A stretch of 64,000 nucleotides of DNA from Candidatus Saccharimonadota bacterium. GTDB taxonomy: Bacteria; Patescibacteriota; Saccharimonadia; Saccharimonadales; UBA4665. Location of the stretch: positions 14,848 to 78,847 of the forward strand of contig JABCZM010000002.1 of NCBI GenBank assembly GCA_013289705.1, in the 5' to 3' direction. Made by a program: the position numbers and the translations under genes. How positions within the stretch are numbered: position 1 is the first letter of the stretch; each line of letters starts with the position of its first letter. Under the pieces are notes generated by a model. It did no database searches and had not been told where the DNA came from. It was given only the letters and a program-made list of their open reading frames with translations. Shown piece after piece: positions 18,061-64,000 of the stretch.

Positions 18061-18370
18061 CTTAGTAGTGCAAAAATTCTTGCCACTTGGGACGTCGAAC
18101 CTGTACTTCAACTCGAGTACCTTTCGAGTTCATAACTTTAATTTTTACTGACATAATAACCCCTATACCAAAGACGGTAGCATATTCAAATACTATCCTC
18201 AGTGGCTTTTTTATTTTTTAACTGTTTTTGTTCTCTCTTCGGGCGGCTCTCGCACTCCGCAGATTCAAGATAAGTGCAGTGTAACGGATACGGTTATGCT
18301 TTGTCAAGAAGAATTGTTGTCTCCGATTTTTCATTACATATTGTAAAAAGTAATGATTTTTGATATAGTA

Positions 18371-18631
18371 ATGAATATGAATAAGCTCATCACTATCACA
18401 AGCAAGGGCCAGACGACGTTACCAATCATCATGCGCCGCAAGCTTGGTATTGATTCGGCTGGTGGAGTACTGCAGATTAATTTTGATGAGCGCAAGGGTG
18501 AGCTAGTCATTACAAAACCGGCCAGCATCACCGACCTGAGTGAACGAATAAGCAGTTTTATCAAGCCGGGCACAAAACCAGTACTTTCAGTTGATGACTA
18601 CTACAAGACCAATCGGGAAATGAAAACTTAG
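18371..18631 (+). CDS. vapB: AbrB/SpoVT-type antitoxin (VapB-like)
   Basis: MNMNKLITITSKGQTTLPIIMRRKLGI motif. The stop abuts the ATG of the PIN gene. The start could be 18353, 18371 or 18377. Confidence 0.7.
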   Translation: MNMNKLITITSKGQTTLPIIMRRKLGIDSAGGVLQINFDERKGELVITKPASITDLSERISSFIKPGTKPVLSVDDYYKTNREMKT

Positions 18632-19051
18632 ATGGCCATTTCTTCTGGGTCACTCGATGCGAATGTGCTCCTGCGACTACTATTGAACGATGTGGCCGAT
18701 CAACACCTAGAGGCGATGAGGCTACTTCAGAATGCTTCCGGGCAATTTGCCGTCGCAGATACTGCCATTATTGAGGTAGTGTTTGTGCTAGAGAGGAACT
18801 ACAAGCTTACAAGATTACAGATATACGAAGCGGTGCAAGGGCTCATTGCGCTCGCACAAATAAACTGCAATCGAAATTTATTTGAAAAGGTTCTGCCTAT
18901 TTTCACGGAGCATGCCGGACTGTCATTTGAAGATTGTTGTCTGGCTACCTATGCCGAACTTGAAGATGCAAATCCCTTATGGACTTTCGACAAGAAGCTT
19001 GCGAATCAAACTTCAAACACCCAGCTTGTGAGTGCCGACTTACTTCGGTAG
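18632..19051 (+). CDS. vapC: PIN-domain toxin (VapC-like)
   Basis: 139 aa. N-terminal LDANVLLRLLLND (first acidic residue), an internal E and C-terminal D residues. Directly follows the antitoxin. Confidence 0.75.
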   Translation: MAISSGSLDANVLLRLLLNDVADQHLEAMRLLQNASGQFAVADTAIIEVVFVLERNYKLTRLQIYEAVQGLIALAQINCNRNLFEKVLPIFTEHAGLSFEDCCLATYAELEDANPLWTFDKKLANQTSNTQLVSADLLR

Positions 19052-21414: not shown

Positions 21415-21649
21415 ATGTAACCCTTCTTGATGGAGAGCAAGGGGTGTTTCTCGGTAAGCCCGGTGAAACTGACGACTTGCTCGGCCATCGTAGTTAAGAA
21501 GCTGTATCTGACTTATCACTCTTTATGAAAAGAATGCTTTACAGTTGCGGCACAGTTCCCGATTCGCACGGGATTCCAGCTTTGATTGTTAAGTTCTAGT
21601 AGTGTAGCACCAGTCCATTACGCTAGATATAGTAGTTTTTGCAATGAAA

Positions 21650-27259: not shown

Positions 27260-29098
27260 ATGTGCGGTATTGTAGGCTACATTGGCGAACAACCTAAAGC
27301 GCTCAACGTCGTACTCGACGGCCTGAGTGCGCTTGAATATCGTGGCTACGATTCAGCGGGCGTGGCATATTTGGACAACAAAAAGCAACTGCTGCTCGAC
27401 AAGCAAGTTGGACGCGTCCAGGGGCTGATCGATAGCTTAGGCGGCGCTGATTTGCCGCCAACCACCACGGCCATTGGCCACACTCGCTGGGCAACCCACG
27501 GTATCCCAACCATTCCAAACGCTCACCCACAAAGCAACACCGATAAAACCATCATGGTGGTCCATAACGGCATTATCGAAAACTATAGCGAACTACGCGA
27601 TCATCTGGAAAAGCAAGGTTACAAATTTGTGTCCGAAACCGACACAGAAGTAATCCCCCACCTGATTGATTTTTATACCCGCACTACAACATCGTTTGTC
27701 GAGGCGTTCGAACAGGCCTTGCACCAGCTGCGCGGAGCATACGGCATCGTGGTAGCTACGTCAGCCGAGCCAGACACACTGTACGCTGCCCGACTCTCAA
27801 GCCCACTGGTGTTTGGCGTCGCCGAAGATGCCTTAATTGTAGCATCGGACCCGTCCGCCATCATGGAACACACCAAGAAAGTAATCTATTTGAACGACTA
27901 CGAGTTTGTTTGTCTGCATAGCGATGGCAGTTACGATATCAAGGATTTTGAGCATGACACCGTGGTGGAACGCGAAGTCGAGACATTGGAATACGATGCA
28001 GCACAGGCATCACTGGGTGACTACCCACACTTTATGCTCAAAGAGATCTTTGAAATCCCCGCAACGCTACGTTCGGCCACATTGGGACGCATTAAATTAG
28101 AGAGCAACACCGTAAAATTAGGTGGCCTAGAATCTGTCGCCGAACAGCTAAAGTATATTGATCGGATTGTGATTGTGGCCTGCGGCACGGCATCATATGC
28201 TGGCATGTACGGCGAATATTTGATAGAGGAACTAGCGGGAATTCCGGTGGAAGTTCAGCAAGCCAGTGAATTTAAATACCGCAACGAACCGTTTTCCCGC
28301 AGCACCGCGCTGATTGCCGTTTCCCAGTCCGGCGAAACCGCAGACACCATTGCCGCTTTGAAAAAAGTTGAAAGTTACGGTGTACTGCGTTTAGGTGTTA
28401 TTAATGCCGTGGGCAGCACCATGACCCGCATGACCGATGCTGGCGTCTATTGCCACGCCGGACCAGAACAAGCAGTTGCCAGTACCAAGGCGTTCTTTGC
28501 ACAGGCAACCGTGCTGATGCTGATTGGCCTGTACCTAAGCAATGGCCGCTCAGAAATCTACAAGCCACTTCTAGAAGAACTAGAAGCCCTGCCAAACAAA
28601 GCCAAACAAGTACTCGACCAAGCAGACAAGATTAAAGCACTGGCCGAAAAATACAAAGACAATCGAGACTTTATTTACATCGGTCGTGGCTATGCCTACC
28701 CCTGCGCACTGGAAGGCGCCATTAAGCTCAAAGAAATCACCTATATCCACGCCGAAGGCTACCCAGCTGGCGAAATGAAACACGGGCCACTGGCCCTGAT
28801 CGACGAAAACTTTCCGACCTTTGTGATTGCCACTGATTCTAAAGTGCTAGAAAAAACCTACGGCAGCATTCAGGAAATTCGTGCTCGCAAAGGCCCAGTG
28901 ATTGCCATCGCTACCGAGGGAAACACCGAAATCGCCAAACTTGCCGACGACGTCATTTATGTTCCTAAATCAATGGAGCAAACATCACCATTGCTCGCAG
29001 AAATCGTCATGCAACTCTTTTCATACTATGTTGCCGTAGCCAAAGACCTCAACGTCGACCGCCCTCGCAACCTTGCAAAATCAGTCACCGTCGAATAA
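27260..29098 (+). CDS. glmS: glutamine--fructose-6-phosphate aminotransferase (isomerising)
   Basis: MCGIVGY N-terminal nucleophile, two SIS domains, and a C-terminal ...LAKSVTVE. 612 aa. Confidence 0.97.
   Translation: MCGIVGYIGEQPKALNVVLDGLSALEYRGYDSAGVAYLDNKKQLLLDKQVGRVQGLIDSLGGADLPPTTTAIGHTRWATHGIPTIPNAHPQSNTDKTIMVVHNGIIENYSELRDHLEKQGYKFVSETDTEVIPHLIDFYTRTTTSFVEAFEQALHQLRGAYGIVVATSAEPDTLYAARLSSPLVFGVAEDALIVASDPSAIMEHTKKVIYLNDYEFVCLHSDGSYDIKDFEHDTVVEREVETLEYDAAQASLGDYPHFMLKEIFEIPATLRSATLGRIKLESNTVKLGGLESVAEQLKYIDRIVIVACGTASYAGMYGEYLIEELAGIPVEVQQASEFKYRNEPFSRSTALIAVSQSGETADTIAALKKVESYGVLRLGVINAVGSTMTRMTDAGVYCHAGPEQAVASTKAFFAQATVLMLIGLYLSNGRSEIYKPLLEELEALPNKAKQVLDQADKIKALAEKYKDNRDFIYIGRGYAYPCALEGAIKLKEITYIHAEGYPAGEMKHGPLALIDENFPTFVIATDSKVLEKTYGSIQEIRARKGPVIAIATEGNTEIAKLADDVIYVPKSMEQTSPLLAEIVMQLFSYYVAVAKDLNVDRPRNLAKSVTVE
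28997..29098 (+). repeat. direct repeat copy 1 (last 33 codons + stop of glmS)
   Basis: 102 nt, identical to 29805-29906 except at 2 positions. Confidence 0.9.
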
Positions 29099-29145: not shown

Positions 29146-29367
29146 ATGAAGAACATTACCCTCTCCGCCCCTGAAGCACTCATTGAGCAGGCTCGAAAAA
29201 AAGCAATTGCTAAGGGCACAACACTCAATAATGAGTTCCGTCTATGGCTGGAAGCGCAGACAGCGAACGGAGAAGAACGAGCAGCTCAATATAGGCAAGT
29301 CATGAAACGACTTTCGCACGTTAATGCTGGTCGTAAATTCACTCGTGAAGAAATGAACCAGCATTAA
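29146..29367 (+). CDS. small antitoxin (RHH/VapB-like) of the PIN module
   Basis: 73 aa starting MKNITLSAPEALIEQARKKAIAKGTTLNNEF. Sits 4 nt upstream of the PIN gene. Confidence 0.6.
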   Translation: MKNITLSAPEALIEQARKKAIAKGTTLNNEFRLWLEAQTANGEERAAQYRQVMKRLSHVNAGRKFTREEMNQH

Positions 29368-29371
29368 AAGC

Positions 29372-29906
<535 letters not shown>

Positions 29907-29941
29907 TCTTTAGCAACGAAAAGTATGATACTTTAATTCAT

Positions 29942-30160
29942 TCACAGCGGCTGGCCTACGCTTCGCTCAAAAGCAGCAATAATGTCCGTACTGGGATCAA
30001 TAAGATCTTCTGTTTTATAGGCATTAGCTTTTTTCTTGTGTGCCCAGACACCTATTTGAATGGGCTTTTTAACAGGGGCCGGAGCAATTACCGCTTGCGC
30101 CCTTCTGATGAGTTTGATGAGATTCGTCTTCGCTTCGTAGACGGGAATGACTTTACGCAT
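29942..30160 (-). CDS. orphan Phd/YefM-like antitoxin
   Basis: 72 aa. MRKVIPVYEAKTNLIKLIRRAQA resembles the Phd/YefM N-terminus. No toxin ORF lies downstream, where only the glmS relic is found. Confidence 0.5.
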   Translation of the reverse strand: MRKVIPVYEAKTNLIKLIRRAQAVIAPAPVKKPIQIGVWAHKKKANAYKTEDLIDPSTDIIAAFERSVGQPL

Positions 30161-30167
30161 ATGCTAG

Positions 30168-55313: not shown

Positions 55314-56123
55314 CTATATATTCTCCGCAAAGCTATCCGCTTGGCTCTTAAAGTAAGCCATGCCGCCAATCAAAACCAATATTACAACGCCAAAAGGAAT
55401 CAATGCATACCAGCCGCCGCCGAATATGCGTGATGTGGTAATTACTAATTTGTCGTGAGTAATCAATGAATAACGAGCGTCCTGTATTGACTGCGCCATT
55501 GGGTTTAGGAGCAATATTTTTTGGTAGGTCACGTCGTGGATAATTGATAGCGAATACAGTATTGGCGTGAGGTAAAAGCCCGCCTGCAAAGCCACTTCCC
55601 ATATGTAGCTAATATCCCGAAATTTCACGAATGCGGCTGACAAAAAGAGAGAAATACCAAGCGCAAACACATATACCTCGATAAGTATGAGCGGCAGCAA
55701 GAACGTAGTGTTAAGTAGGTCAACACGGTTAACGAGCATAAAAATTGCGACGACAATAAGATTCAGGCCAAGATTAATGACAGCTGACAGGCTACTACTA
55801 AACACAATTATCCAACGGGGGATACTAATTTTACGGATTAGGTCACCTCGGCCAACAATCGAACCTAGGCTTTGAACGGTCATTTCATAAAAGAAGTTCC
55901 ATATAACAATACCCAGCAGAAGGTAAACTGGGAAGTGTGGTATTCCACCGCCAGATTTTAAGACTTTTACGAATACAACATACAGGATAACAAATAAAAG
56001 TAGTGGGCGGAGGAGTGACCACGCATAACCTAGCGCAGAACCTTGGTAGCGCAACTTGAAGTCTGTGCGGACTAACTCGCTCAGCAGCGCCCGGTTTTGT
56101 TTTGAGAAGATACGATTGAACAT
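55314..56123 (-). CDS. wzm: ABC-2 type polysaccharide exporter permease (Wzm/TagG-like)
   Basis: 269 aa with 6 TM helices. The N-terminus LVRTDFKLRYQGSALGYAWSLLRPLL is typical of ABC2_membrane. Confidence 0.85.
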   Translation of the reverse strand: MFNRIFSKQNRALLSELVRTDFKLRYQGSALGYAWSLLRPLLLFVILYVVFVKVLKSGGGIPHFPVYLLLGIVIWNFFYEMTVQSLGSIVGRGDLIRKISIPRWIIVFSSSLSAVINLGLNLIVVAIFMLVNRVDLLNTTFLLPLILIEVYVFALGISLFLSAAFVKFRDISYIWEVALQAGFYLTPILYSLSIIHDVTYQKILLLNPMAQSIQDARYSLITHDKLVITTSRIFGGGWYALIPFGVVILVLIGGMAYFKSQADSFAENI

Positions 56124-56191
56124 TGGTTGTAGAGTATTATAGATGAAGATTGGCCTGAAGTCGACAAAACTCCTATATAATATTGGTTAGT

Positions 56192-57658
56192 ATGCAGCAG
56201 ACAAGTTTACCCATATTTATTGAAGAAGAGGCCGAAACAAACAGTGTTGAGTTCAAAACCTCCGCTGATGGTAAGCTGCCGAAAGATATCTGGCACACCG
56301 TATCAGCCTTTGCCAATAGTAGTGGCGGCAAGATTATTTTTGGGATTACGCCTGAGGGCACGCGAGTAAACCTCTCGAAAACCAGCGTCGACAGCCTCCA
56401 ACAAGACATCGTCTCGCTCTGTAGCCAAGGCTTTAGTAGCACAATTACGCCCGACATTCAGTACAGCGAGGGCGTACTGGTGGTTTTTATACCCCCATCT
56501 CCAGCACAGCTTCGACCAGTTTACATGAAAAGCAAGGGTGCTGGCAGCGGCACATACGTACGCGAAGGCTCTTCAAACCGCATTGCCAATGATGAAATGA
56601 TCCGTCGTTTTAGCGTTGCTGCTCGAGGTGGAGCCGAAACACTAGATTTCGAAGAAATTAGCTTTGCGGATTGCCTAGCAATGGAGCTCGTTAACGAGTA
56701 TATAGACCTTATAAACCAAAAGAAGACGAACATGTACCAAAACTTTACTGCTGAAGAGGTTTTGATAAAATTACGAGCCATCACAAAAACACTACACCCG
56801 ACGTTGTTCGGTCTATTAGCATTCGGGAAGGCTGCAACGCCACAAGAGATAATCTCTCCCACGGTGAGCATTACCACCACTCAATACCCCGGACTTACCA
56901 AGGTTAATGAGGAAGACTTCTCTGAAACATACGTCGACAATCGCGAGTTTTACGGCAACGCCAAGCGTCAATTCGAGGATGCTTTTACCTTCATGAAATC
57001 AAAACTGCCCGTGCGCGGTACGATAGATAGTAACGGCAAGCGGCGAGATTATTTCGTCATACCCGAGGTTGCACTGCGTGAGGCCCTAGCCAATGCTTTA
57101 GCGCACAGAGATTATTCGACCTATTCGTCATCAATTCAGATTGACATTTTTTCGGATCGTATTGAGATTATTAATCCTGGGGTAAGCTTGGTGCCCATAG
57201 AGCAACTGGATCACGCTCCATCTGCCACCCGAAATCCACTCCTTATGAACTACCTAAAGGACTACGGTATTACCGATCAAAAAGCTCGAGGCATACGAAC
57301 CATCAAGGTCTCTCTGAAAGCAGCCGGGCTGCTTGCCCCAACATTTGAAAATGTCGGCCAATCTTTCAAAGCAACACTTTTTGCATCGGCCTTTATCTCT
57401 CCAGAGGATAAAGCTTGGCTACAAAAATTCACTTCGTTTGAGCTCAATGAACGACAACTCAATGCACTGACACATGCAAAAAATAACCCCGAAGGCATAA
57501 ATAATGGCGAATATCGTGACTACAACAGCATGAACAACGTTCGCGACGACAAAAAGGCAAATAAAGAGCTCCGTCAACTTGTGGAAAAAGGTATCTTGAT
57601 CATATCTGGCGAGAATAAGGCGAGGCGGTATGTACTGCATTCAGACTATGCTCAATAA
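56192..57658 (+). CDS. AlbA_2 (Schlafen-like, divergent AAA) + HATPase_c_4 + C-terminal wHTH protein
   Basis: ETNSVEFKTS...WHTVSAFANSSGGKIIFGI (AlbA_2). REALANALAHRDYS...IDIFSDRIEIINPG (HATPase_c_4). C-terminal LNERQLNAL...RYVL (wHTH-like). ATG at 56192 preferred over TTG at 56183. Confidence 0.7.
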   Translation: MQQTSLPIFIEEEAETNSVEFKTSADGKLPKDIWHTVSAFANSSGGKIIFGITPEGTRVNLSKTSVDSLQQDIVSLCSQGFSSTITPDIQYSEGVLVVFIPPSPAQLRPVYMKSKGAGSGTYVREGSSNRIANDEMIRRFSVAARGGAETLDFEEISFADCLAMELVNEYIDLINQKKTNMYQNFTAEEVLIKLRAITKTLHPTLFGLLAFGKAATPQEIISPTVSITTTQYPGLTKVNEEDFSETYVDNREFYGNAKRQFEDAFTFMKSKLPVRGTIDSNGKRRDYFVIPEVALREALANALAHRDYSTYSSSIQIDIFSDRIEIINPGVSLVPIEQLDHAPSATRNPLLMNYLKDYGITDQKARGIRTIKVSLKAAGLLAPTFENVGQSFKATLFASAFISPEDKAWLQKFTSFELNERQLNALTHAKNNPEGINNGEYRDYNSMNNVRDDKKANKELRQLVEKGILIISGENKARRYVLHSDYAQ

Positions 57659-57758
57659 GTTTATCGCCCCGATATCGCCCGTTTATCGCCCCGATATCGC
57701 CCCATCCGCACCCCTGTTGGCCGTATTTTATCGCCCGTTTATCGCCCCGATATCGCCC
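57659..57758 (+). repeat. iteron-like array: 22-bp unit GTTTATCGCCCCGATATCGCCC (x3) = seven TATCGCCC 8-mers phased at 11 bp
   Basis: 8-mers start at 57662, 57673, 57684, 57695 and at 57729, 57740, 57751. A longer 33-nt repeat occurs at 57673-57705 and 57729-57761. Confidence 0.9.
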
Positions 57759-57787
57759 CATTTATTACAAACCGCCGAGGAGATTGC

Positions 57788-58822
57788 ATGACCAAAAAGA
57801 CTGCTGCAAAGGTATCGGTAGTAATCCCGAACTGGAACGGCATTGATTCTATCGGTGCCTGTTTGGATTCGCTGCTTGCCCAAACTTACAAGCCACGCAT
57901 TATTGTCGTCGAAAACGGCTCAAAAGACGGCTCACTTAAATTCATACAGCAAAACTATCCATCCGTAGAACTCGTAATACACAAAAGAAATAAAGGGTTT
58001 GCAGGTGGCGTTAATGCCGGCATCCGCAGAGCAATGCGGCATCATGGTGACGAATTTGTGGCTCTGCTTAACAACGATGCCGTGGCGGACGCACACTGGC
58101 TCGAACACTTGCTAGACGATATACAAGCCAATACCGACACCGGTATCGTAACCTGCAAACTAATGGATCAGCACAAAAAACACCTCGACAGCACCGGTGA
58201 TCAATATACCATTTGGGGCCTACCTTTTCCGCGAGGCCGAGGCGAACCAGTGAGCGACAAATACGATGACCACGTGCAAGTCTTTGGGGCCAGCGGCGGC
58301 GCCAGCCTGTACCGCGTCAGTATGCTGGAGCAGATTGGGTTATTTGACGAGGATTTCTTTGCCTACTATGAAGATGTTGATCTTAGTTTTCGGGCACAAT
58401 TGGCTGGCTGGAAGGTGCGCTATGTGCCGGAGGCGATTGCCTACCACCAAATCGGGGCTACCAGCGGTAAAATTAAAGGATTTACGACTCGCCAGACAGT
58501 CAAAAATCTACCGTGGCTACTGTTAAAGAATGCCCCGTTCAGCATTCTGGTGCGTGTTTTGCCGCGATTCATGTTCGCTTACCTGTCGTTTATTATTATG
58601 GCAGCCGCTCGCGATCAAGGCTACGCCGCACTCATGGGCTATTTTCAGATGGTGTTCTTGCTGCCAAAAAAGGTACTGCAACGATTGCAAATTCAGCATC
58701 ACCGCAAAGTAAAATCTTCCTACATATGGAACATCATGACGCACGAACTACCGCCAAACGCGCGCAGGCTACGACTACTGTTCCACCCCATTAAAAGTTT
58801 GGCAAAAGATAGAGACCATTAA
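57788..58822 (+). CDS. glycosyltransferase family 2 (rhamnosyltransferase-like)
   Basis: VSVVIPNWNGIDSIGACLDSLLAQTY, NNDAVAD, GASGGASLYRV and YYEDVDLSFRAQLAGW. Confidence 0.85.
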   Translation: MTKKTAAKVSVVIPNWNGIDSIGACLDSLLAQTYKPRIIVVENGSKDGSLKFIQQNYPSVELVIHKRNKGFAGGVNAGIRRAMRHHGDEFVALLNNDAVADAHWLEHLLDDIQANTDTGIVTCKLMDQHKKHLDSTGDQYTIWGLPFPRGRGEPVSDKYDDHVQVFGASGGASLYRVSMLEQIGLFDEDFFAYYEDVDLSFRAQLAGWKVRYVPEAIAYHQIGATSGKIKGFTTRQTVKNLPWLLLKNAPFSILVRVLPRFMFAYLSFIIMAAARDQGYAALMGYFQMVFLLPKKVLQRLQIQHHRKVKSSYIWNIMTHELPPNARRLRLLFHPIKSLAKDRDH

Positions 58823-58878
58823 AACAGTTGACCCTCATAAACCCGTACGGTACTATTGCCTCGTAAGCCAAACCAGCA

Positions 58879-59289
58879 GTGCTGGACGCACAAAGGGACT
58901 GTATGCAATTTCAGGCTCACGGTGGCATCAATATCTTGGGAGTAGTCGGTACAGTCTATCACTGGGTAGATGTATTGAGTGGGCCCGTGCTGGGATTGGC
59001 GATTGTTATCTGGGCTATCCGAAAATATCTGGCATTTCGCTGGCACCGCACGCAACCAACCATCTTGTTTGAACTGACACCTCCTGCCTCAAGCAAACGG
59101 ACACCGCACGCCACCGAACAGTTCCTTATGAGTCTGCATTCACTGGGCAGGCATCTTACGTTTAGCCAGCGATTGCTCGGCAGAACAGCGGTCTTTTCGT
59201 TGGAACTACCAGCATCGCGTCGCAAGGGTATTCGCTACGCCGTACGAGTTAGGGTTACGAGACGTGTTGAGAACACTATTTTTCGTTGA
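58879..59289 (+). pseudogene. N-terminal fragment of a membrane-anchored ATPase-type gene (resembles the N-terminus of CPR DUF87/T4SS-coupling-like proteins)
   Basis: TM helix LSGPVLGLAIVIWAI, then ILFELTPP...TEQFLMSLHSLG...FSLELPASRRKGIRYAVRV. The ORF ends after about 125 aa, just before a TA cassette promoter. The ATPase body is absent. Confidence 0.35.
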
Positions 59290-59297
59290 ACGTTTTA

Positions 59298-59326
59298 TTG
59301 ACAAACGTATTACGTTTTGCTATTTT
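59298..59326 (+). promoter_or_regulatory. TA module A promoter TTGACA-N17-TATTTT with embedded perfect palindrome AAACGTAtTACGTTT
   Basis: -35 at 59298-59303, palindrome at 59303-59317, -10 at 59321-59326, ATG at 59333 (6 nt after the -10 box, leaderless-type). Confidence 0.5.
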
Positions 59327-59332
59327 AAGGAC

Positions 59333-59578
59333 ATGAGTAATGTTATTTCTAGCAAATACCAGGTTGTCATACCTAAGGCCATACGAAAACAGTTGGGCAT
59401 CAAACCTGGTCAAAGAGTACGTGTCGAAGCGGGTAAAAATGGTGATATCGTTCTAAAACAAGAGCCTGAGCAAAAAAGCTACCGAAGCCTCATTGGTACG
59501 CTTGAAGCCCAGGCCGAAGACCCTGTCGTGCGGATCCGGCGTCTGCGCGACAACTGGAGACGCGGTGATATACATTGA
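59333..59578 (+). CDS. vapB: AbrB/SpoVT-type antitoxin, paralog A
   Basis: MSNVISSKYQVVIPKAIRKQLGIKPGQRVRV. 81 aa. Overlaps the PIN gene. Confidence 0.75.
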   Translation: MSNVISSKYQVVIPKAIRKQLGIKPGQRVRVEAGKNGDIVLKQEPEQKSYRSLIGTLEAQAEDPVVRIRRLRDNWRRGDIH

Positions 59579-59957
59579 TGCCAACATCCTCATATACTTG
59601 CTGGAAGATCATGGCGAAAAAAGCTTGTTTGTAGCCGATACGTTAGATGAGTTCCGAGCAAAACAACAGCCGTTTCTTACCTCGGTAATAACCATCACCG
59701 AGTTTTTGGCCGGTACCCGCACACTGAACAGAGACACGCTCGGTACTATTTCTGGTCTTGGGTTTCAAATTGTCGACGAAACAATTGCCGAAAGCGCAGC
59801 CAGACTCCAAAGAGATAAAAACCTTAAAATCGGCGACGCAGTACACCTAGCAACCGCCATCCAGAACAATGCAGCTGTTTTCTTTACGAATGATAGGCAG
59901 CTTGCAAAGGCAGCTTCGCAGTATTTAGAAGTTAAAACACTGTCGATGGTCGTATGA
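59565..59957 (+). CDS. vapC: PIN-domain toxin, paralog A
   Basis: GTG start giving (M)IYIDANILIYLLED..., ITEFL and GDAVHLATAIQNNAAVFFTNDRQL. The stop overlaps the next ATG (ATGA). Confidence 0.75.
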   Translation: MIYIDANILIYLLEDHGEKSLFVADTLDEFRAKQQPFLTSVITITEFLAGTRTLNRDTLGTISGLGFQIVDETIAESAARLQRDKNLKIGDAVHLATAIQNNAAVFFTNDRQLAKAASQYLEVKTLSMVV

Positions 59958-61051
59958 GCAAGATCGTCATCTGTTCACGCGAATGGAGCGGCAGCACCGG
60001 CCGGTATGCACGAGCCCTGGTCGAGCATTTGCAGGATATCGACACAAAAAATCAGTACATCATACTGCTCAAACCAGAAGACGCTGCCAGCTGGCAGCCA
60101 AAAAACCCGCGATTCTCGGTGCTAGCCTGCCCTCACAAAGAATTTAGCTTCGATGAACAATTTGGGCTCAAAAAACAACTTGAGATTTTACGGCCGGACC
60201 TCGTGCATTTCACGATGGTGCAGCAGCCCGCTTGGTACGGTGGCAAAGTTGTGACCACCATGCAAGACCTCACAACCATCCGTTTTCGCAATCTTTCTAA
60301 AAACCCAATTGTATTCGCTATCAAACAACAGGTCTATCGATGGCTCAATAAAAAGGTGGCAAAAAAATCAGTTGCCATTATTACACCTTCGCAATTCGTC
60401 CGTCTCGACGTGGCAAGCTTTACGCGCATCAATCCCGACAAGATAACCGTTACCCACGAAGGTGCCGATAGAATTACCAACAACCCGGAACCTGTGAAAG
60501 GCCTAGAAAAAGCACAATTCATCATGTATCTTGGCCGACCCATGACTCACAAAAACTTACCACGACTAATTGAAGCATTCAAAAAATTACAGATAGACCG
60601 GCCCGAACTTCGACTCGTGCTTGCAGGCAAAAAAGATGATAATTACCAGAAAATTGAGCGGGTTGTAGCAGCCCAGGGCACTAAAAATGTAGCCTTCACC
60701 GACTACGTAAGCGAAGGCCAGCTTCGTTGGCTCTACGAACACTGTGCAGCCTACGTCTTTCCTTCGCTGAGCGAAGGTTTCGGCCTACCAGGTCTAGAAG
60801 CTATGGCGCATGGCGCCCCAGTGATTAGCAGTAACGCTACTTGTTTACCTGAAATATACGGTGATGCAGTGTACTACTTTGACCCCGTAAACATCGACGA
60901 CATGGCAAAAAAAATCGGTGAGGTGCTTGATAGTGAACGCTTGCGTCAAGAACTGATTGCCGCCGGAAACCTGCAAGTCGATAAGTACTCGTGGCGGCGC
61001 ATGGCCAAGCAAACATTGGCCGTCTACGAACAAGCACTCAAACACACATAA
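59954..61051 (+). CDS. glycosyltransferase family 4 (GT-B)
   Basis: 365 aa. C-terminal YVFPSLSEGFGLPGLEAMAHGAPVISS (E-x7-E). Confidence 0.85.
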   Translation: MSKIVICSREWSGSTGRYARALVEHLQDIDTKNQYIILLKPEDAASWQPKNPRFSVLACPHKEFSFDEQFGLKKQLEILRPDLVHFTMVQQPAWYGGKVVTTMQDLTTIRFRNLSKNPIVFAIKQQVYRWLNKKVAKKSVAIITPSQFVRLDVASFTRINPDKITVTHEGADRITNNPEPVKGLEKAQFIMYLGRPMTHKNLPRLIEAFKKLQIDRPELRLVLAGKKDDNYQKIERVVAAQGTKNVAFTDYVSEGQLRWLYEHCAAYVFPSLSEGFGLPGLEAMAHGAPVISSNATCLPEIYGDAVYYFDPVNIDDMAKKIGEVLDSERLRQELIAAGNLQVDKYSWRRMAKQTLAVYEQALKHT

Positions 61052-62175
61052 TGAGCACTCCAGGTAACGGCAAACAACTACTCAATAGCCTGACATCGCT
61101 CCGGTTTTTTGCCGCCCTACTGGTGTTTCTGTGGCACACGCATTTGTGGGGCAACCATCTCGACAGATACCAGCTTGGCTACGCGGGCGTGTCATTCTTT
61201 TATATGCTGTCTGGTTTCGTGCTGACCTACGCCTATTACAAACGAATTACCATAGGCAAATTTACAGCCATTAAGTCCTACTATATTGCTCGGATTGCCA
61301 AGATTTATCCCGTTCATCTACTGACTTTTGCACTAGCAATACCGCTAGCTTTCTACGTCGTGCATGCCAGTGGCGTTGCAGAATTTCTAAAGCAAGCCGT
61401 TGCCAATGTTTTCCTCGTCCAAAGCTTTTCGCCACATATTCCCTACTATTTTGCCTTCAATGCCGTTTCGTGGAGCATTTCGGATGAGCTGTTTTTCTAT
61501 TTACTTATGCCCGTGTTTATATTCATCGCGTTCCGCCTGCGCAACAAGCTGTCTATTGGAAAACTTGTACTGAGCATGCTTGTTATCTGGATTGCAATGG
61601 TCGCCCTACTAACAGGAAAAGTTGCCGTGCTTGATCAGTGGGCCTATTATGTCTTGCCGTTGATTCGCTTGCCCGACTTTGTCCTAGGCATCTTGCTGTG
61701 TCTTGTATACTGGAAAAGCCAATCGACGAAACTCAATTCTATAAGGACTACGTGATTTAGTCTCGCCGAGATCAGCGCACTCACATTGTTGGTAACGGGG
61801 TTCATCGGCGACGCTCACTTGCCTCAGGCACTGCACTTTGACGTCGGCTTTTTGCCGTTTTGGACCATACTTATCTTCGTATTTGCACATGAGCGTGGCA
61901 TTATCTCGAAGCTATTAGGCCGCCGGCCGTTCGTGTTTCTGGGTGAAATTAGCTTTTCGTTCTACATGCTACACCAGCTTGTTATTCGGTACATCTGGCA
62001 CTACGGGATCAAGCCAGTTGCACCAATCGCGTTCACCATAACACTTGTGGGCAGCGCAGCGCTATTCCTTTTGTACGAGGAAAACATGCGCAAACTAGTC
62101 CGCAACAAGCTCGAAGCTAAGCTCGTTTGGCCAAGAAAAAACAAAGACACAGTGCTAGCAGAAGAGGCATTTTAG
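61051..62175 (+). pseudogene. acyltransferase family 3 (OafA/YrhL-like O-acyltransferase) interrupted by one in-frame TGA
   Basis: LTSLRFFAALLVFLWH start motif and about 10 TM helices. ORFs 61051-61755 and 61786-62175 are in the same frame, separated only by TGA at 61753-61755 (…IRTT*FSLAEISALTLLV…). Combined length of 374 codons fits the family. Confidence 0.7.
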
Positions 62176-62178
62176 AAT
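62161..62178 (+). repeat. direct repeat copy 1 (acyltransferase last codons + stop: GAAGAGGCATTTTAGAAT)
   Basis: Matches 62928-62945 at 17 of 18 positions. Weaker similarity continues for about 14 more nt. Confidence 0.6.
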
Positions 62179-62227
62179 TACGAACCAATTCGTTTTACTC
62201 TCACTAAATTGCCTGTTGTTTTACGAA

Positions 62228-62256
62228 TTGACAAAGGTTTTACGTTTTGATATAGT
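62228..62256 (+). promoter_or_regulatory. TA module B promoter TTGACA-N17-TATAGT with TTTTACG repeats
   Basis: -35 at 62228-62233 and -10 at 62251-62256. TTTTACG at 62219 and 62238. ATG at 62264. Confidence 0.5.
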
Positions 62257-62263
62257 TGAACTT

Positions 62264-62506
62264 ATGAAAAACAACTCCTTGGCACTGTCCAGTAAGTACC
62301 AAATCGTCATCCCGAAAGCTGCTCGACAGAAAATGGGTCTTGATAAAGCTATCGGCCAGCGCCTGCGTGTGAAGAGTGTCACTGAAAACGAGATTGTTTT
62401 TAGCAAAGAACCTTCTATTGACGACTTCTTGGGCGCGTTTGGTGACACCTTCCCTAAAAATACCGCCGCTAAGATCCGTAAAATGCGTGATGAGGAATGG
62501 GACTAA
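62264..62506 (+). CDS. vapB: AbrB/SpoVT-type antitoxin, paralog B
   Basis: MKNNSLALSSKYQIVIPKAARQKMGL...IRKMRDEEWD. Confidence 0.75.
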   Translation: MKNNSLALSSKYQIVIPKAARQKMGLDKAIGQRLRVKSVTENEIVFSKEPSIDDFLGAFGDTFPKNTAAKIRKMRDEEWD

Positions 62507-62509
62507 ACA

Positions 62510-62929
62510 ATGCTCATCGCACTGGACAGCAACATACTCATCGCCGCCCTGTCGCCACACGAAGAGCACTCCATATGGGCACAGCAACTTATAAAAGATA
62601 TTGCCAGCAACCGCTATCAAGCCGTGGTTTCGTCGATAGCTTACGGGGAAATCTTGAGTTTCAGCACACAACAAGTAGCAAGAGCCCTCGATCTAGGCTC
62701 GTTTCTTAGACAGATTAAAAATTGCGCGACTATAGCGGCAGATGACACGATCTGCTTGGCGGCTGGCGAGCTAAGAAGGACGTACGGCGGCAAGCTCAAG
62801 CTGCCCGATGCACTGCATCTTACCACAGCCCTCAACCAAAAGGCAGATTTATTCATCACGAACGATTTTAAGTTAGCGAAAGTTGCAGAGAGTATCGTAG
62901 CAACCAAGACTTTGGGTGAGTGGGTATGA
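62510..62929 (+). CDS. vapC: PIN-domain toxin, paralog B
   Basis: MLIALDSNILIAAL, YGEIL and PDALHLTTALNQKADLFITNDFKL. Confidence 0.8.
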   Translation: MLIALDSNILIAALSPHEEHSIWAQQLIKDIASNRYQAVVSSIAYGEILSFSTQQVARALDLGSFLRQIKNCATIAADDTICLAAGELRRTYGGKLKLPDALHLTTALNQKADLFITNDFKLAKVAESIVATKTLGEWV

Positions 62930-62945
62930 AGAGGCATCTTAGAAT
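62928..62945 (+). repeat. direct repeat copy 2 (GAAGAGGCATCTTAGAAT)
   Basis: Overlaps the vapC-B stop codon. Would read EEAS* versus EEAF* in copy 1. Confidence 0.6.
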
Positions 62946-63083
62946 CGCCAGCCGATTCGCCGGTGAGGCCATATAAGCACTCAACAACAATCGTTTGCGC
63001 CAAGAACTGACTACGGAGCCGGAAATGTTAGCTGCGCATAAACAGATAGTAGAATAGTAAGAAGTATTCTTTTTAACCTACCA

Positions 63084-63113
63084 TTAACAAACGTCTTACT
63101 TTTTTGCTAACAT
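63084..63113 (+). promoter_or_regulatory. TA module C promoter TTAACA-N18-TAACAT (degenerate version of the A/B promoter)
   Basis: ATTAACAAACGTCTTACTTTTTTGCTAACAT aligns with ATTGACAAACGTATTACGTTTTGCTATTTT of module A. ATG at 63121. Confidence 0.4.
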
Positions 63114-63120
63114 TTTACAC

Positions 63121-63366
63121 ATGGACATAACTGTTTCAACAAAGTACCAGATAGTAATACCGAAAGCTGTGAGAAAGCAGCTTGGCATCAAACCTGGTCA
63201 AAAACTCCGTATCGATAGCGTCGTTGGTAAACAAGTCACCCTATCAGCACCTCTGACAACAGAAGAATATCTAGATAAATATGCCGACTCACTCAAGGGC
63301 ACCGTCTGGCAAAAGTCAGGAATGGATGCAACCGAATGGATCCGCAAAATGCGTGACGAGGACTAG
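63121..63366 (+). CDS. vapB: AbrB/SpoVT-type antitoxin, paralog C
   Basis: MDITVSTKYQIVIPKAVRKQLGIKPGQKLRI...IRKMRDED. Shares a 19-nt identical run (63184-63202) with paralog A (59396-59414). Confidence 0.75.
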   Translation: MDITVSTKYQIVIPKAVRKQLGIKPGQKLRIDSVVGKQVTLSAPLTTEEYLDKYADSLKGTVWQKSGMDATEWIRKMRDED

Positions 63367-63375
63367 AGCTAAATC

Positions 63376-63566
63376 GTGATCGGACTTGATAGCAAACTAC
63401 TTTTACCCGCTGACAACGCTATTGCCCACCGTGCTGGCGTGCTTCGATTCAAACACGGTATTAAAACACCGACGCTATTCGCTTAGCTACAGCAGAACTT
63501 GCTGGGGCAGTCACATTTATTACAAAGACCTTAGGCTGGTTAGGCTCAAACTTGCTTCTGGCCTAA
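63376..63566 (+). pseudogene. decayed PIN toxin, paralog C (internal deletion plus frameshift)
   Basis: GTG-VIGLDSKLLLP... (PIN N-terminus) runs into TAG at 63484. The PIN C-terminus DAIRLATAELAGAVTFITK is readable in another frame (63471-63566). Total length is about 190 nt versus about 400 nt for intact paralogs. Confidence 0.65.
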
Positions 63567-63596
63567 AAATACTACCCTTGGTGGGTTAACCTCAGC

Positions 63597-64000
63597 CTAT
63601 TCGGCGAGCTTCAATACAATATGTCGGTCGCGGCCATCGCCGGCCGATTCACTCGTCAGGCCATATTCGGCGGCAAGCTGGTGCACAATGCGGCGATCAG
63701 CAGCGTTCATTGGTCGAAGTTCCATTGGTTCGCCACTGTCTTTGACATGCTTAACCCAATCTTCGGCGGTATGGCTAAGACGCTCGGCGCGCTGCTTTTT
63801 GTAGTCGGCAACATCGACGTTCACGCGGGTATACTGGTAATTGCTATTTTTGAGGGCAGTACTTACCAAATACTGCAGGGAGTGCATGGTTTCGGCGTGC
63901 TGACCAATCAAAAATCCGTTTAAATGTGTCGAAGGAACACTAAGCTGAATAACTTCTTCGTCACTGCTGGCGTGAATGTCGATGTTGGCCCCAAAAAACG
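63597..64000 (-). CDS. jag: Jag/KhpB-type RNA-binding protein (KH + R3H), 5' end beyond the window
   Basis: C-terminal R3H motif MNAADRRIVHQLAAEYGLTSESAGDGRDRHIVL. The KH-like LIGQHAETMHSLQYLV lies upstream. The frame stays open to position 64000. Confidence 0.75.
   Translation of the reverse strand, partial: FFGANIDIHASSDEEVIQLSVPSTHLNGFLIGQHAETMHSLQYLVSTALKNSNYQYTRVNVDVADYKKQRAERLSHTAEDWVKHVKDSGEPMELRPMNAADRRIVHQLAAEYGLTSESAGDGRDRHIVLKLAE

Follow-up and report, generated by a model that had tools for sequence, protein, structure and literature searches.

In a 64,000-nucleotide stretch of a Candidatus Saccharimonadota genome (order Saccharimonadales; contig JABCZM010000002.1, positions 14,848 to 78,847; hereafter the window) we identified five vapBC toxin-antitoxin (TA) cassettes, three of which have flanking direct repeats derived from the 3' region of a neighbouring gene. 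One of these cassettes, TA-B, lies between two copies of an 18-mer that belongs to the end of an acyltransferase gene. Similar repeats recur around vapBC cassettes elsewhere, their copies differ from each other in the way coding sequences do, the slot that holds TA-B has variable contents in relatives, and the strain of the window and a second strain differ as a mosaic. We interpret the repeats, with a probability of roughly 55%, as scars left when relatives with and without a cassette recombined in a homology-facilitated, one-ended manner, in naturally competent Saccharibacteria. The mechanism, the uptake of DNA by natural transformation and the order of events are what we infer from the observations presented below.

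An earlier sequence-only reading of the window had described TA-B as a cassette inserted at the stop codon of the acyltransferase gene, with duplication of the tail of this gene. The coordinates and sequences of the two 18-mers (Table 1) and their 17/18 match are exactly as it had claimed, and our repeat search extends the match to 26/32. Its statement that the repeat encloses precisely a promoter, vapB-B and vapC-B is also borne out by the coordinates, as the content between the copies consists of a 40-nt spacer, a promoter-like site and the two genes. vapB-B stops 3 nt ahead of vapC-B and the two form one operon with its own promoter-like site. The antitoxin scores slightly under the model cut-offs (23.0 vs 24.7 bits for PF04014 and 25.2 vs 28.3 bits for TIGR01439). 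In an alignment of 28 sequences the residues D6, E47 and D100 of VapC-B are invariant, and its C-terminus (..KTLGEWV) coincides with the natural end of the family. Judged from these domains TA-B is predicted to be an ordinary type II VapBC module, made of a PIN toxin and an AbrB-type antitoxin.

To evaluate the 18-mer we ran within the window the statistical test of 17/18 repeats that the same reading had proposed, and the repeat proved to be non-random. Direct repeats of this quality or better within 1 kb occupy just six diagonals in the 64 kb, namely the TA-B 18-mer, a duplication at glmS described below, the paralogy between vapB-B and vapB-C, and three diagonals from one 11-nt tandem array. 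When 12,000 random intervals of 550-900 nt were drawn from the window, a flank-to-flank score of 34 was met only by the flanks of the glmS cassette, of TA-B and of TA-C and by the tandem array; the 18-mer, which scores 34, also exceeds the maximum of 32 obtained with 300 shuffles of the spacer. A coincidental match could still be argued from its length of only 18 nt and from its having been spotted by eye and post hoc. Besides the random intervals and the shuffles, the exact position of the copies at the host stop and at the vapC stop, their conservation in a second strain and the existence of two sister cases in the window and about nine elsewhere make coincidence extremely improbable. The tandem array itself, two blocks of the unit TATCGCCCCGA, is located at 57659-57765, in the intergenic region between an SLFN/AlbA_2-type gene and a GT2 glycosyltransferase gene.

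An assembly artefact was ruled out, since independent assemblies are concordant, the two copies differ from each other and the structure recurs in a second strain. Eight contigs that overlap positions 58001-64000, taken from JGI, ENA and Logan assemblies of different samples, agree with the window at 99.97-100% identity throughout the overlap. The second strain, L012, is 98.3% identical to the window and has the same architecture; its copy 2 (GAAGAGGCATCTTAGAAC) matches copy 1 at 16/18 positions in the same layout. Comparison of the two strains also bears on the host gene. In every contig of the window strain the acyltransferase reading frame is broken by an in-frame TGA at 61753-61755, and the two halves correspond to the open reading frames (ORFs) 60991..61755 and 61786..62175, which share one common frame. 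L012 has TGG at this codon and carries instead an additional T after 61104 and an additional A after 62135, the latter shifting the frame across EEAF*. The acyltransferase is thus decaying: barring readthrough of the TGA, both strains are inactivating it independently. Its nearest homologue is merely 50% identical, with none higher in a search of 5.8 billion proteins. The repeat does lie at the acyltransferase stop, as first proposed; the framing around the stop codon is fragile, since the frameshift of L012 alters the very codons concerned. Taken alone, the acyltransferase 18-mer is a minor and ambiguous instance, and its value lies in the recurring pattern to which it belongs.

The parallel that had been drawn with the cassette behind glmS is real, and it is much stronger than the TA-B case. 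Here positions 28994-29097 and 29802-29905 match over 104 nt at 98%. In a relative with about 74% nucleotide identity, L099, the glmS-vapBC arrangement is collinear with the window and VapC is 85% identical. Only 34 nt separate vapC from the convergent NTP-transferase gene in L099, without the relic that follows vapC in the window and without a 72-aa ORF found next to it. Because the cassette is common to L099 and the relic is not, the cassette is old, and the relic is recent and lineage-specific. At both informative sites the relic has the state of the outgroup L099 (GGC encoding Gly, and TAG) and the working copy has the derived state (GAC encoding Asp, and TAA), which is the reverse of the states expected had a duplicate made on the spot decayed. 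The 72-aa ORF lies on the minus strand at 29942-30160 (within 29907-30167), between the glmS relic and the NTP-transferase gene, and the whole 373-nt segment that contains it is absent in L099. It has no Pfam (E <= 1e-5) or NCBIfam (E <= 0.1) match; by eye its N-terminus recalls Phd/YefM antitoxins.

We systematically aligned the 300 nt upstream of each window cassette with the 300 nt downstream. The scores were 198 for the glmS cassette, 37 for TA-C (repeat from jag), 34 for TA-B (repeat from the acyltransferase), 18 for TA-A and 16 for the TA at 18353-19051, the 99th percentile of the null being 26. TA-C follows TA-B and is itself followed by jag, the locus adjoining jag-yidC-rnpA-rpmH and dnaA-dnaN. 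Its putative vapB-C is intact and its vapC-C is broken, the reading frames suggesting that the toxin is eroding first; vapC-C differs from that of L012 by a 45-nt indel and no gene is called there in any contig. At TA-A (in the region 59333-59957 of the window) the vapC-A stop overlaps the start of the GT4 glycosyltransferase gene (ATGA). A block comprising a hypothetical 128-aa gene and TA-A is absent in the relative L107, where GT2 overlaps GT4 directly, and no flank repeat accompanies the TA-A insertion.

The 144 nt behind vapC-B turned out to be a patchwork of three scraps, from the acyltransferase tail, from jag and from GT4. All three are in direct orientation, and each can be traced to the final 116 nt of one of the neighbouring genes. 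The jag relic reads YGLTGESAGD where the gene reads YGLTSESAGD, and four of the five nucleotide differences between them are at third codon positions. A similarity of 9 of 14 positions past the 18-mer, previously taken as a continuation of the acyltransferase repeat, is better assigned to this jag fragment (62944-62974 vs 63636-63666, 26/31). The GT4 relic (34 nt), compared with 60938-60969, has a local score of 32, the same value as the best of 300 shuffles. Of the repeat pairs, those of GT4 and jag interleave, and that of the acyltransferase is nested within the GT4 pair; the interleaving indicates that these are not simple successive target duplications.

Such a patchwork might also be filler from one repair or replication event with serial template switching, a broken or stalled 3' end having copied pieces of nearby templates ahead of strand rejoining; the 18-mer would then be one templated patch, uninformative on the insertion of TA-B. 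Three scraps (18, 31 and 34 nt) lie within 100 nt, in direct orientation and copied from within 2.1 kb, their joins overlap by 0-2 nt, and the interleaving of the GT4 and jag pairs fits as well; moreover, TA-B is ancestral in the slot of relatives (see below), which makes a recent insertion of TA-B unnecessary. Against filler, all three scraps originate in the last 116 nt of a gene, for which about 11% of the local sequence qualifies, giving by our own estimate a chance of about 0.1% for three; decayed tail relics agree better with this than random templates do. The jag scrap, with 5/31 differences mostly at third positions, resembles another allele rather than a fresh copy, and the clean 104-nt glmS relic and the 65-230-nt repeats at other loci are left unexplained. 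We therefore consider filler unlikely as the overall explanation, while for the acyltransferase 18-mer specifically it is a live alternative.

A further reading of the locus is that a unit consisting of the acyltransferase tail and its cassette was tandemly duplicated to give TA-B and TA-C, the second 18-mer being the start of the second unit. TA-C is indeed directly in tandem, and paralogous patches in promoter and vapB occur at offsets of 848-866 nt. However, the two units are 52% identical over aligned columns, and at this divergence a tail conserved at 17/18 has by our own estimate a probability of about 3e-4. vapB-C is paralogous to vapB-A and closer to it than to vapB-B. In addition the 126 nt from the second 18-mer to the TA-C promoter are made of the jag and GT4 scraps and have no counterpart in the 37 nt of the first unit. 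The discrepancy between unit identity and tail identity rules out this duplication, to which we attach a negligible probability.

Table 1. Features of the glmS, TA-B and TA-C loci, in window coordinates.
Feature	Position	Strand	Remarks
Functional glmS tail, copy 1	28994..29098	+	last 34 codons and TAA
vapBC cassette behind glmS	29146..29800	+	vapB 29146-29367, vapC 29372-29800; PIN E = 5e-9
glmS-tail relic, copy 2	29802..29906	+	starts 1-4 nt past the vapC stop; open frame, TAG stop
Acyltransferase gene (Acyl_transf_3)	61051..62175	+	PF01757 on both halves; start overlaps GT4 stop (TAATG)
18-mer copy 1	62161..62178	+	GAAGAGGCATTTTAGAAT; codons EEAF, TAG stop (62173-62175) and AAT
TA-B promoter-like site	62228..62256	+	sigma-70-like TTGACA-17-TATAGT, TG extension, 11/12 matches
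vapB-B antitoxin (AbrB/MazE-type, 80 aa)	62264..62506	+	PF04014 E = 7.6e-5, TIGR01439 E = 1e-5
vapC-B toxin (PIN, 139 aa)	62510..62929	+	PF01850 E = 2.4e-16; full length
18-mer copy 2 (acyltransferase-tail relic)	62928..62945	+	GAAGAGGCATCTTAGAAT; first bases are the GA of the vapC-B TGA stop (62927-62929)
jag/khpB relic (internal 3' segment)	62944..62974	-	26/31 to 63636-63666, score 37
GT4 glycosyltransferase 3'-region relic	62992..63025	+	RLRQEL..AGN, 2-nt indel; 17/19 to 60938-60956
TA-C promoter-like site	63084..63113		
vapB-C antitoxin of TA-C (AbrB type)	63121..63366	+	PF04014 E = 2.1e-10, TIGR01439 E = 2.6e-12
vapC-C pseudogene	63376..63590	+	PIN fragments over three frames, internal deletions (three-frame translation)
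jag/khpB 3' part (KH-R3H protein)	63597..64000	-	PF01424 R3H; convergent with the cassettes; 63636-63666 is the relic source

The sequence-only reading had also called for a search for TA modules flanked by duplicated 3' ends of upstream genes, and we performed it on metagenome loci. A scan with an alignment of VapC-B relatives yielded 80 loci from very different organisms, amounting to 361 kb, with about 66 cassettes having enough flank. Approximately nine independent vapBC cassettes among these 66 (about 14%) are bracketed by direct repeats of 65-230 nt (L018, L028, L032, which is the same locus as L084, L042, L052, L064, L067, L072 and L085), and in most of them the second copy begins 11-86 nt past the vapC stop. 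The argument that two independent cassettes with this footprint make chance less likely is thereby reinforced, by the third local case (TA-C, from jag) as well as by the metagenome cassettes. L032/L084 duplicate the 3' end of a phosphodiesterase gene, and L085 that of an alpha/beta hydrolase gene. In L052 the repeat comes from a glycoamylase-family gene that is convergent with vapC, like jag, and is an internal segment near the 3' end; in L042 it lies in the 3' region of HsdR, cut by the contig end, and in L072 in the 3' part of an uncharacterised ORF. The direct repeats are the 3' end of the target gene for the acyltransferase, glmS, L032/L084 and L085, and an internal segment near the 3' end for jag. 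Their lengths are 18, 31, 65, 68, about 104-110 and 218-229 nt.

Several repeats from the scan were rejected as host tails. That of L067 is a 65-nt hairpin-containing repeat, those of L082 and L016 reflect vapB paralogy, and those of L055, L058 and L060 (spacings of 807/831 nt) look like internal or paralogous gene repeats, judging from one ABC-like ORF. All further direct repeats in these 361 kb stem from gene paralogy or from repeats inside proteins.

We then counted the substitutions between working tail and relic by codon position over seven independent cases. At positions 1/2/3 these are 0/1/2 for glmS, 1/1/8 for L032, 2/2/8 for L072, 1/0/4 for jag, 3/0/14 for L052 (17% divergence), 2/0/0 for L085 and 0/1/1 for L042. 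The total of 51 substitutions is distributed 9/5/37, with 73% at third and 10% at second positions. For an in-place duplication followed by neutral decay we estimate about 43% third-position and 28% second-position changes, and a chi-square calculated by hand against this estimate gives about 19 (2 degrees of freedom, p ~1e-4). Of the relics that were translated (glmS, L032, L084 and L072) all have an open frame, and the stop is kept in all three that reach the gene end. The third-position bias indicates that the copies diverged while both were working gene ends, and consequently that they come from two different genomes.

These counts bear directly on a transposition-like insertion, in which staggered cuts would duplicate the target site in place, as the footprint first described implies. 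The direct repeats do immediately bracket a compact unit, and several have lengths near 103-110 nt (glmS 104, L032/L084 104-108, L052 103 and L018 about 109). This cluster dissolves when all cases are listed, from 18 to about 230 nt, and neither terminal inverted repeats nor, in the window ORFs scanned and the gene calls, a transposase was found. The mostly synonymous differences, and above all L052, which is 17% divergent without any second-position change, point to separate functional alleles rather than to two copies made from one. At glmS the cassette is old and the relic young, and the derived states are in the working copy, not in the relic; the interleaved pairs behind vapC-B are equally at odds with such an origin. 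Target-site duplication is largely refuted by the codon-position data, and we regard it as very improbable.

L032 and L084 represent one orthologous locus in two species and allow the history of a relic to be followed. Four differences between tail and relic are common to both species, which places the relic before the species split. Over the locus (L032 231-923) the flanks and the relic are 7-9% divergent between the two (5-9% over flanking genes, promoter spacer and relic together), and vapB and vapC differ by 24% and 31%. This suggests that the cassette alleles have a history apart from their flanks, either because TA alleles were swapped between lineages or because old alleles were maintained.

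We next consider the slot between the glycosyltransferase cluster and jag in relatives. L104 and L107 have about 70-75% nucleotide identity to the window. L107 has the order ABC-GT2-GT4, then a TA-B orthologue 58 nt past the GT4 stop, two citrate-lyase-like genes and jag, with no acyltransferase. In L104 the TA-B orthologue stands directly against jag with overlapping stop codons, again with no acyltransferase. In L109, GT4-GT4 and an acyltransferase homologue (50% identity) are followed after 16 nt by citrate-lyase-like genes, with no TA. In L104 and L107 the sequence homologous to TA-B begins at window position 62218 and includes the promoter, and the nucleotide identity of these orthologues to TA-B is 69-74% (vapB-B about 74% to L104), like that of GT4, GT2 and jag. 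As TA-B has diverged to the same degree as the genes around it, this slot has long contained a cassette of the TA-B type. Hence the proposal that TA-B was inserted at the acyltransferase stop holds as far as the repeat is concerned, but the insertion itself is not parsimonious, given that two relatives carry TA-B without the acyltransferase and one carries the acyltransferase without TA. Either TA-B or the acyltransferase may be the newcomer in this lineage.

A comparison with acyltransferase alleles lacking the cassette had been suggested as well, and it recovered no insertion polymorphism, both strain types having TA-B and the relic. The cassette-less allele was expected to read ...GCTAGCAGAAGAGGCAT.TTAGAA joined to CGCCAGCCGATTCG, and the reconstructed empty-site pattern CTAGCAGAAGAGGCATYTTAGAAYCGCC gave 0 matches in JGI metagenomes. 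A scan of genome contigs for the acyltransferase returned only relatives of about 32% identity from other phyla and no empty site. In exact-protein look-ups with VapC-B, GlmS and the 72-aa ORF, every contig returned has the cassettes in place.

Two further observations were made among the relatives. In related Saccharimonadales (L102-L104) the interval from rnpA to dnaA, next to the presumed replication origin, contains a cassette of the glmS type, and a TA-B-type cassette abuts jag (L104 3775-4429 and 967-1638 are examples), so that the origin region resembles a preferred TA slot. In L105 (378-5414), an NCBI Saccharimonadales metagenome-assembled genome, the gene of a 60% identical VapC-B homologue has a large serine recombinase and a ParB-like gene about 3 kb away; this is possibly an integrated element carrying the TA family of TA-B.

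Evidence for recombination at the locus comes from the comparison of the window with L012 over 56000-64000. The two are identical over kilobases and then differ in sharp clusters, with 19 differences in 56000-56249, 8 in 60000-60249, 25 in 61500-62249 and 12 in 63250-63499. One of these tracts spans the 3' half of the acyltransferase (61560-62109) and ends about 50 nt ahead of the 18-mer. The pattern indicates frequent short recombination imports, and homologous recombination is active here. Saccharibacteria are naturally competent and integrate DNA via homologous recombination (PMC10633639, PMC10187176), and recombination that is homologous at one end and illegitimate at the other is an established process in other bacteria (PMC3240628).

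On the reading we favour, two related genomes would differ between the glycosyltransferase cluster and jag, one having a cassette or another accessory gene there. Incoming DNA would pair with the resident chromosome in a conserved gene, whereas its other end would be partnerless, the cassette being in one genome only. This end would be joined via micro-homology slightly early, either within the end of the conserved gene or immediately ahead of it. The tail of that gene would thereby come to stand on both sides of the cassette, one copy working and the other a dead relic behind the vapC stop. For repeats of sufficient length for RecA, the same product would result from a Campbell-type single crossover with a circular molecule made of tail and cassette. 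The 18-mer would then be a remnant of the acyltransferase 3' end at an illegitimate junction, and repeated hits on the slot between the glycosyltransferase cluster and jag would leave scraps of three gene tails side by side. Both a site-directed and a homology-facilitated insertion had been envisaged for TA-B. The latter fits the data best; for the former we saw no conserved core, inverted repeats or recombinase. A variant in which TA addiction selects aberrant recombinants (failed curing) was dropped, as such cells would have no advantage over non-recombining cells.

Several points weigh against this interpretation. The acyltransferase case consists by itself of 18 nt with one mismatch, which falls on a second codon position, and the codon-position argument is drawn from other, longer cases. 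No donor, empty site or polymorphic strain was recovered in the contig, protein and metagenome searches, and for this reason the junctions are unassignable to donor or recipient. The micro-homology at the junctions is minimal, at about 2 nt (GA between vapC-B and the relic, AT between this relic and the jag relic). In the published cases, one-ended recombination mostly deletes recipient DNA and does not duplicate it. In several independent cases no more than about 25 nt lie between the vapC stop and the start of the relic, and homology ends 0-4 nt from the host stop; such placement is tidier than random illegitimate joining would predict, and we can account for it only by compact spacers and selection. 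Finally, the relic has undergone 6-7 changes between L032 and L084 as compared with 7-8 in the working tail, which is unexpected for junk DNA.

The tight placement of the relics, the minimal micro-homology and the slow divergence between L032 and L084 leave room for a trans-acting site-specific mechanism or for a portable homology arm. In the latter case the last 20-230 nt of the host gene would form the arm, and tail plus cassette would be a RecA-dependent, enzyme-free mobile unit. Precise exit between the tail copies may restore the host gene, re-entry into the same gene of any relative may re-create the duplication, and toxin addiction may counter repeat-mediated deletion. If this were true the relic would be functional, explaining both its tightness to the vapC stop and the coding-like divergence of L032/L084. 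We hold such a unit to be possible although unlikely.

A trans-acting mechanism could take the form of small integrative elements mobilised by a tyrosine or serine recombinase, each carrying a replacement tail, with the repeats as attL and attR. The repeats end at or just past the host stop (glmS +0, L032 +4, L084 +2 and acyltransferase +3), the mainly synonymous differences between copies are expected of an element-borne tail that is kept functional, 18 nt is a plausible core size, and the VapC-B homologue of L105 has a large serine recombinase and ParB in its vicinity. Yet a scan of 30 window ORFs and the gene calls near the cassettes revealed no domain of an integrase, resolvase or transposase, in line with the earlier remark that no recombinase is visible locally. 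The repeats range from 18 to about 230 nt, with no shared core or inverted repeat seen: the window repeat search found no terminal inverted repeats pairing the cassette ends, and we noticed no motif common to the repeats of different loci, although no formal motif search was made. Internal fragments make up the relics at 62928-63025, where the GT4 and jag pairs interleave and do not nest. The spacer from tail to vapB differs by 7% between L032 and L084, like the flanks, and vapBC by 24-31%, which argues against independent integration of a whole element in the two lineages; in addition, cassettes of the same families occur at other sites without repeats. An RNA gene as integration target is also not available at the locus, as the window has no tRNA and its sole Rfam match is a distant cobalamin riboswitch. 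Altogether we find integrative elements a doubtful explanation. The riboswitch (RF00174, 33.2 bits vs a gathering score of 31.5) is located at 21482-21630 on the minus strand, upstream of ORFs without Pfam match.

The spread of chromosomal TA operons without mobility genes is an open question; according to a comparative study of 2026, the mechanisms of TA integration are poorly characterised (PMC13617665). Host-tail relics behind a toxin gene form a footprint whose frequency can be determined in any set of genomes, and their codon-position signature tells transposition-like insertion apart from recombination between relatives. If the pattern held in a systematic survey, it would show that these cassettes are moved by ordinary recombination, homologous and illegitimate, with natural transformation as the probable route. 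The relics would then date individual gains and identify TA slots in the reduced saccharibacterial genomes, here the sites that follow glmS and adjoin jag close to the replication origin.

Among known systems, integrative elements that target gene 3' ends and carry a replacement tail include phage 21 and e14 in icd and the islands in tRNA and tmRNA genes. They resemble the cases described here in that the repeats are the 3' end of a gene and end at the gene end, differences are silent and the displaced tail persists as a pseudo-fragment. They differ in that here no integrase was found in or near the cassettes, no conserved core was seen, the lengths are very variable, and the unit is about 0.75-0.8 kb and consists of the TA operon alone. 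Integron gene cassettes and Acinetobacter pdif modules include TA units bounded by attC or by XerC/D pdif sites. Like the present cassettes these are small TA units, with or without promoter, that lie between repeats and move without an enzyme of their own, but their sites are dedicated, of conserved structure and independent of a host gene. The repeats of the present cassettes consist of host coding sequence, and the window ORFs scanned include no IntI-like protein (no search for attC structures was made).

Campbell-type insertion-duplication gives a fragment-insert-fragment product with the whole fragment as direct repeats, leaves the target gene intact if the fragment reaches its end, and turns the two copies into hybrids of donor and recipient, all of which is comparable to what we observe. 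It differs in requiring a circular or concatemeric donor and homology sufficient for RecA, which is plausible for 65-230 nt and not for the 18-nt acyltransferase repeat. Homology-facilitated illegitimate recombination, described in Acinetobacter, Streptococcus pneumoniae, Pseudomonas stutzeri and E. coli (PMC3240628), likewise combines a homology anchor on one side with micro-homology on the other and needs no element-encoded enzyme, which suits a competent host and the strain mosaic seen here. The differences are that the tail of the anchor gene is duplicated in our cases, and that the junction types are deduced here from the product. In Photorhabdus (PMC13617665, Mol Biol Evol 2026) a TA operon is flanked by duplicated res-like 24-bp palindromes, of which a relative lacking the TA has one copy. 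It too is a bare chromosomal TA operon without mobility gene, bracketed by a duplicated short sequence; its repeat, however, is a recombinase site (a Tn3 res-I-like palindrome), and here it is a host coding tail. We found no description of host-tail relics or duplications around TA cassettes in the literature searched, which is weak evidence as the search was limited. With no recombinase found and no dedicated site, the footprint is distinct from the known kinds in its variable length, in repeats that are host coding sequence, and in that recipient DNA is duplicated, deletion being the usual outcome.

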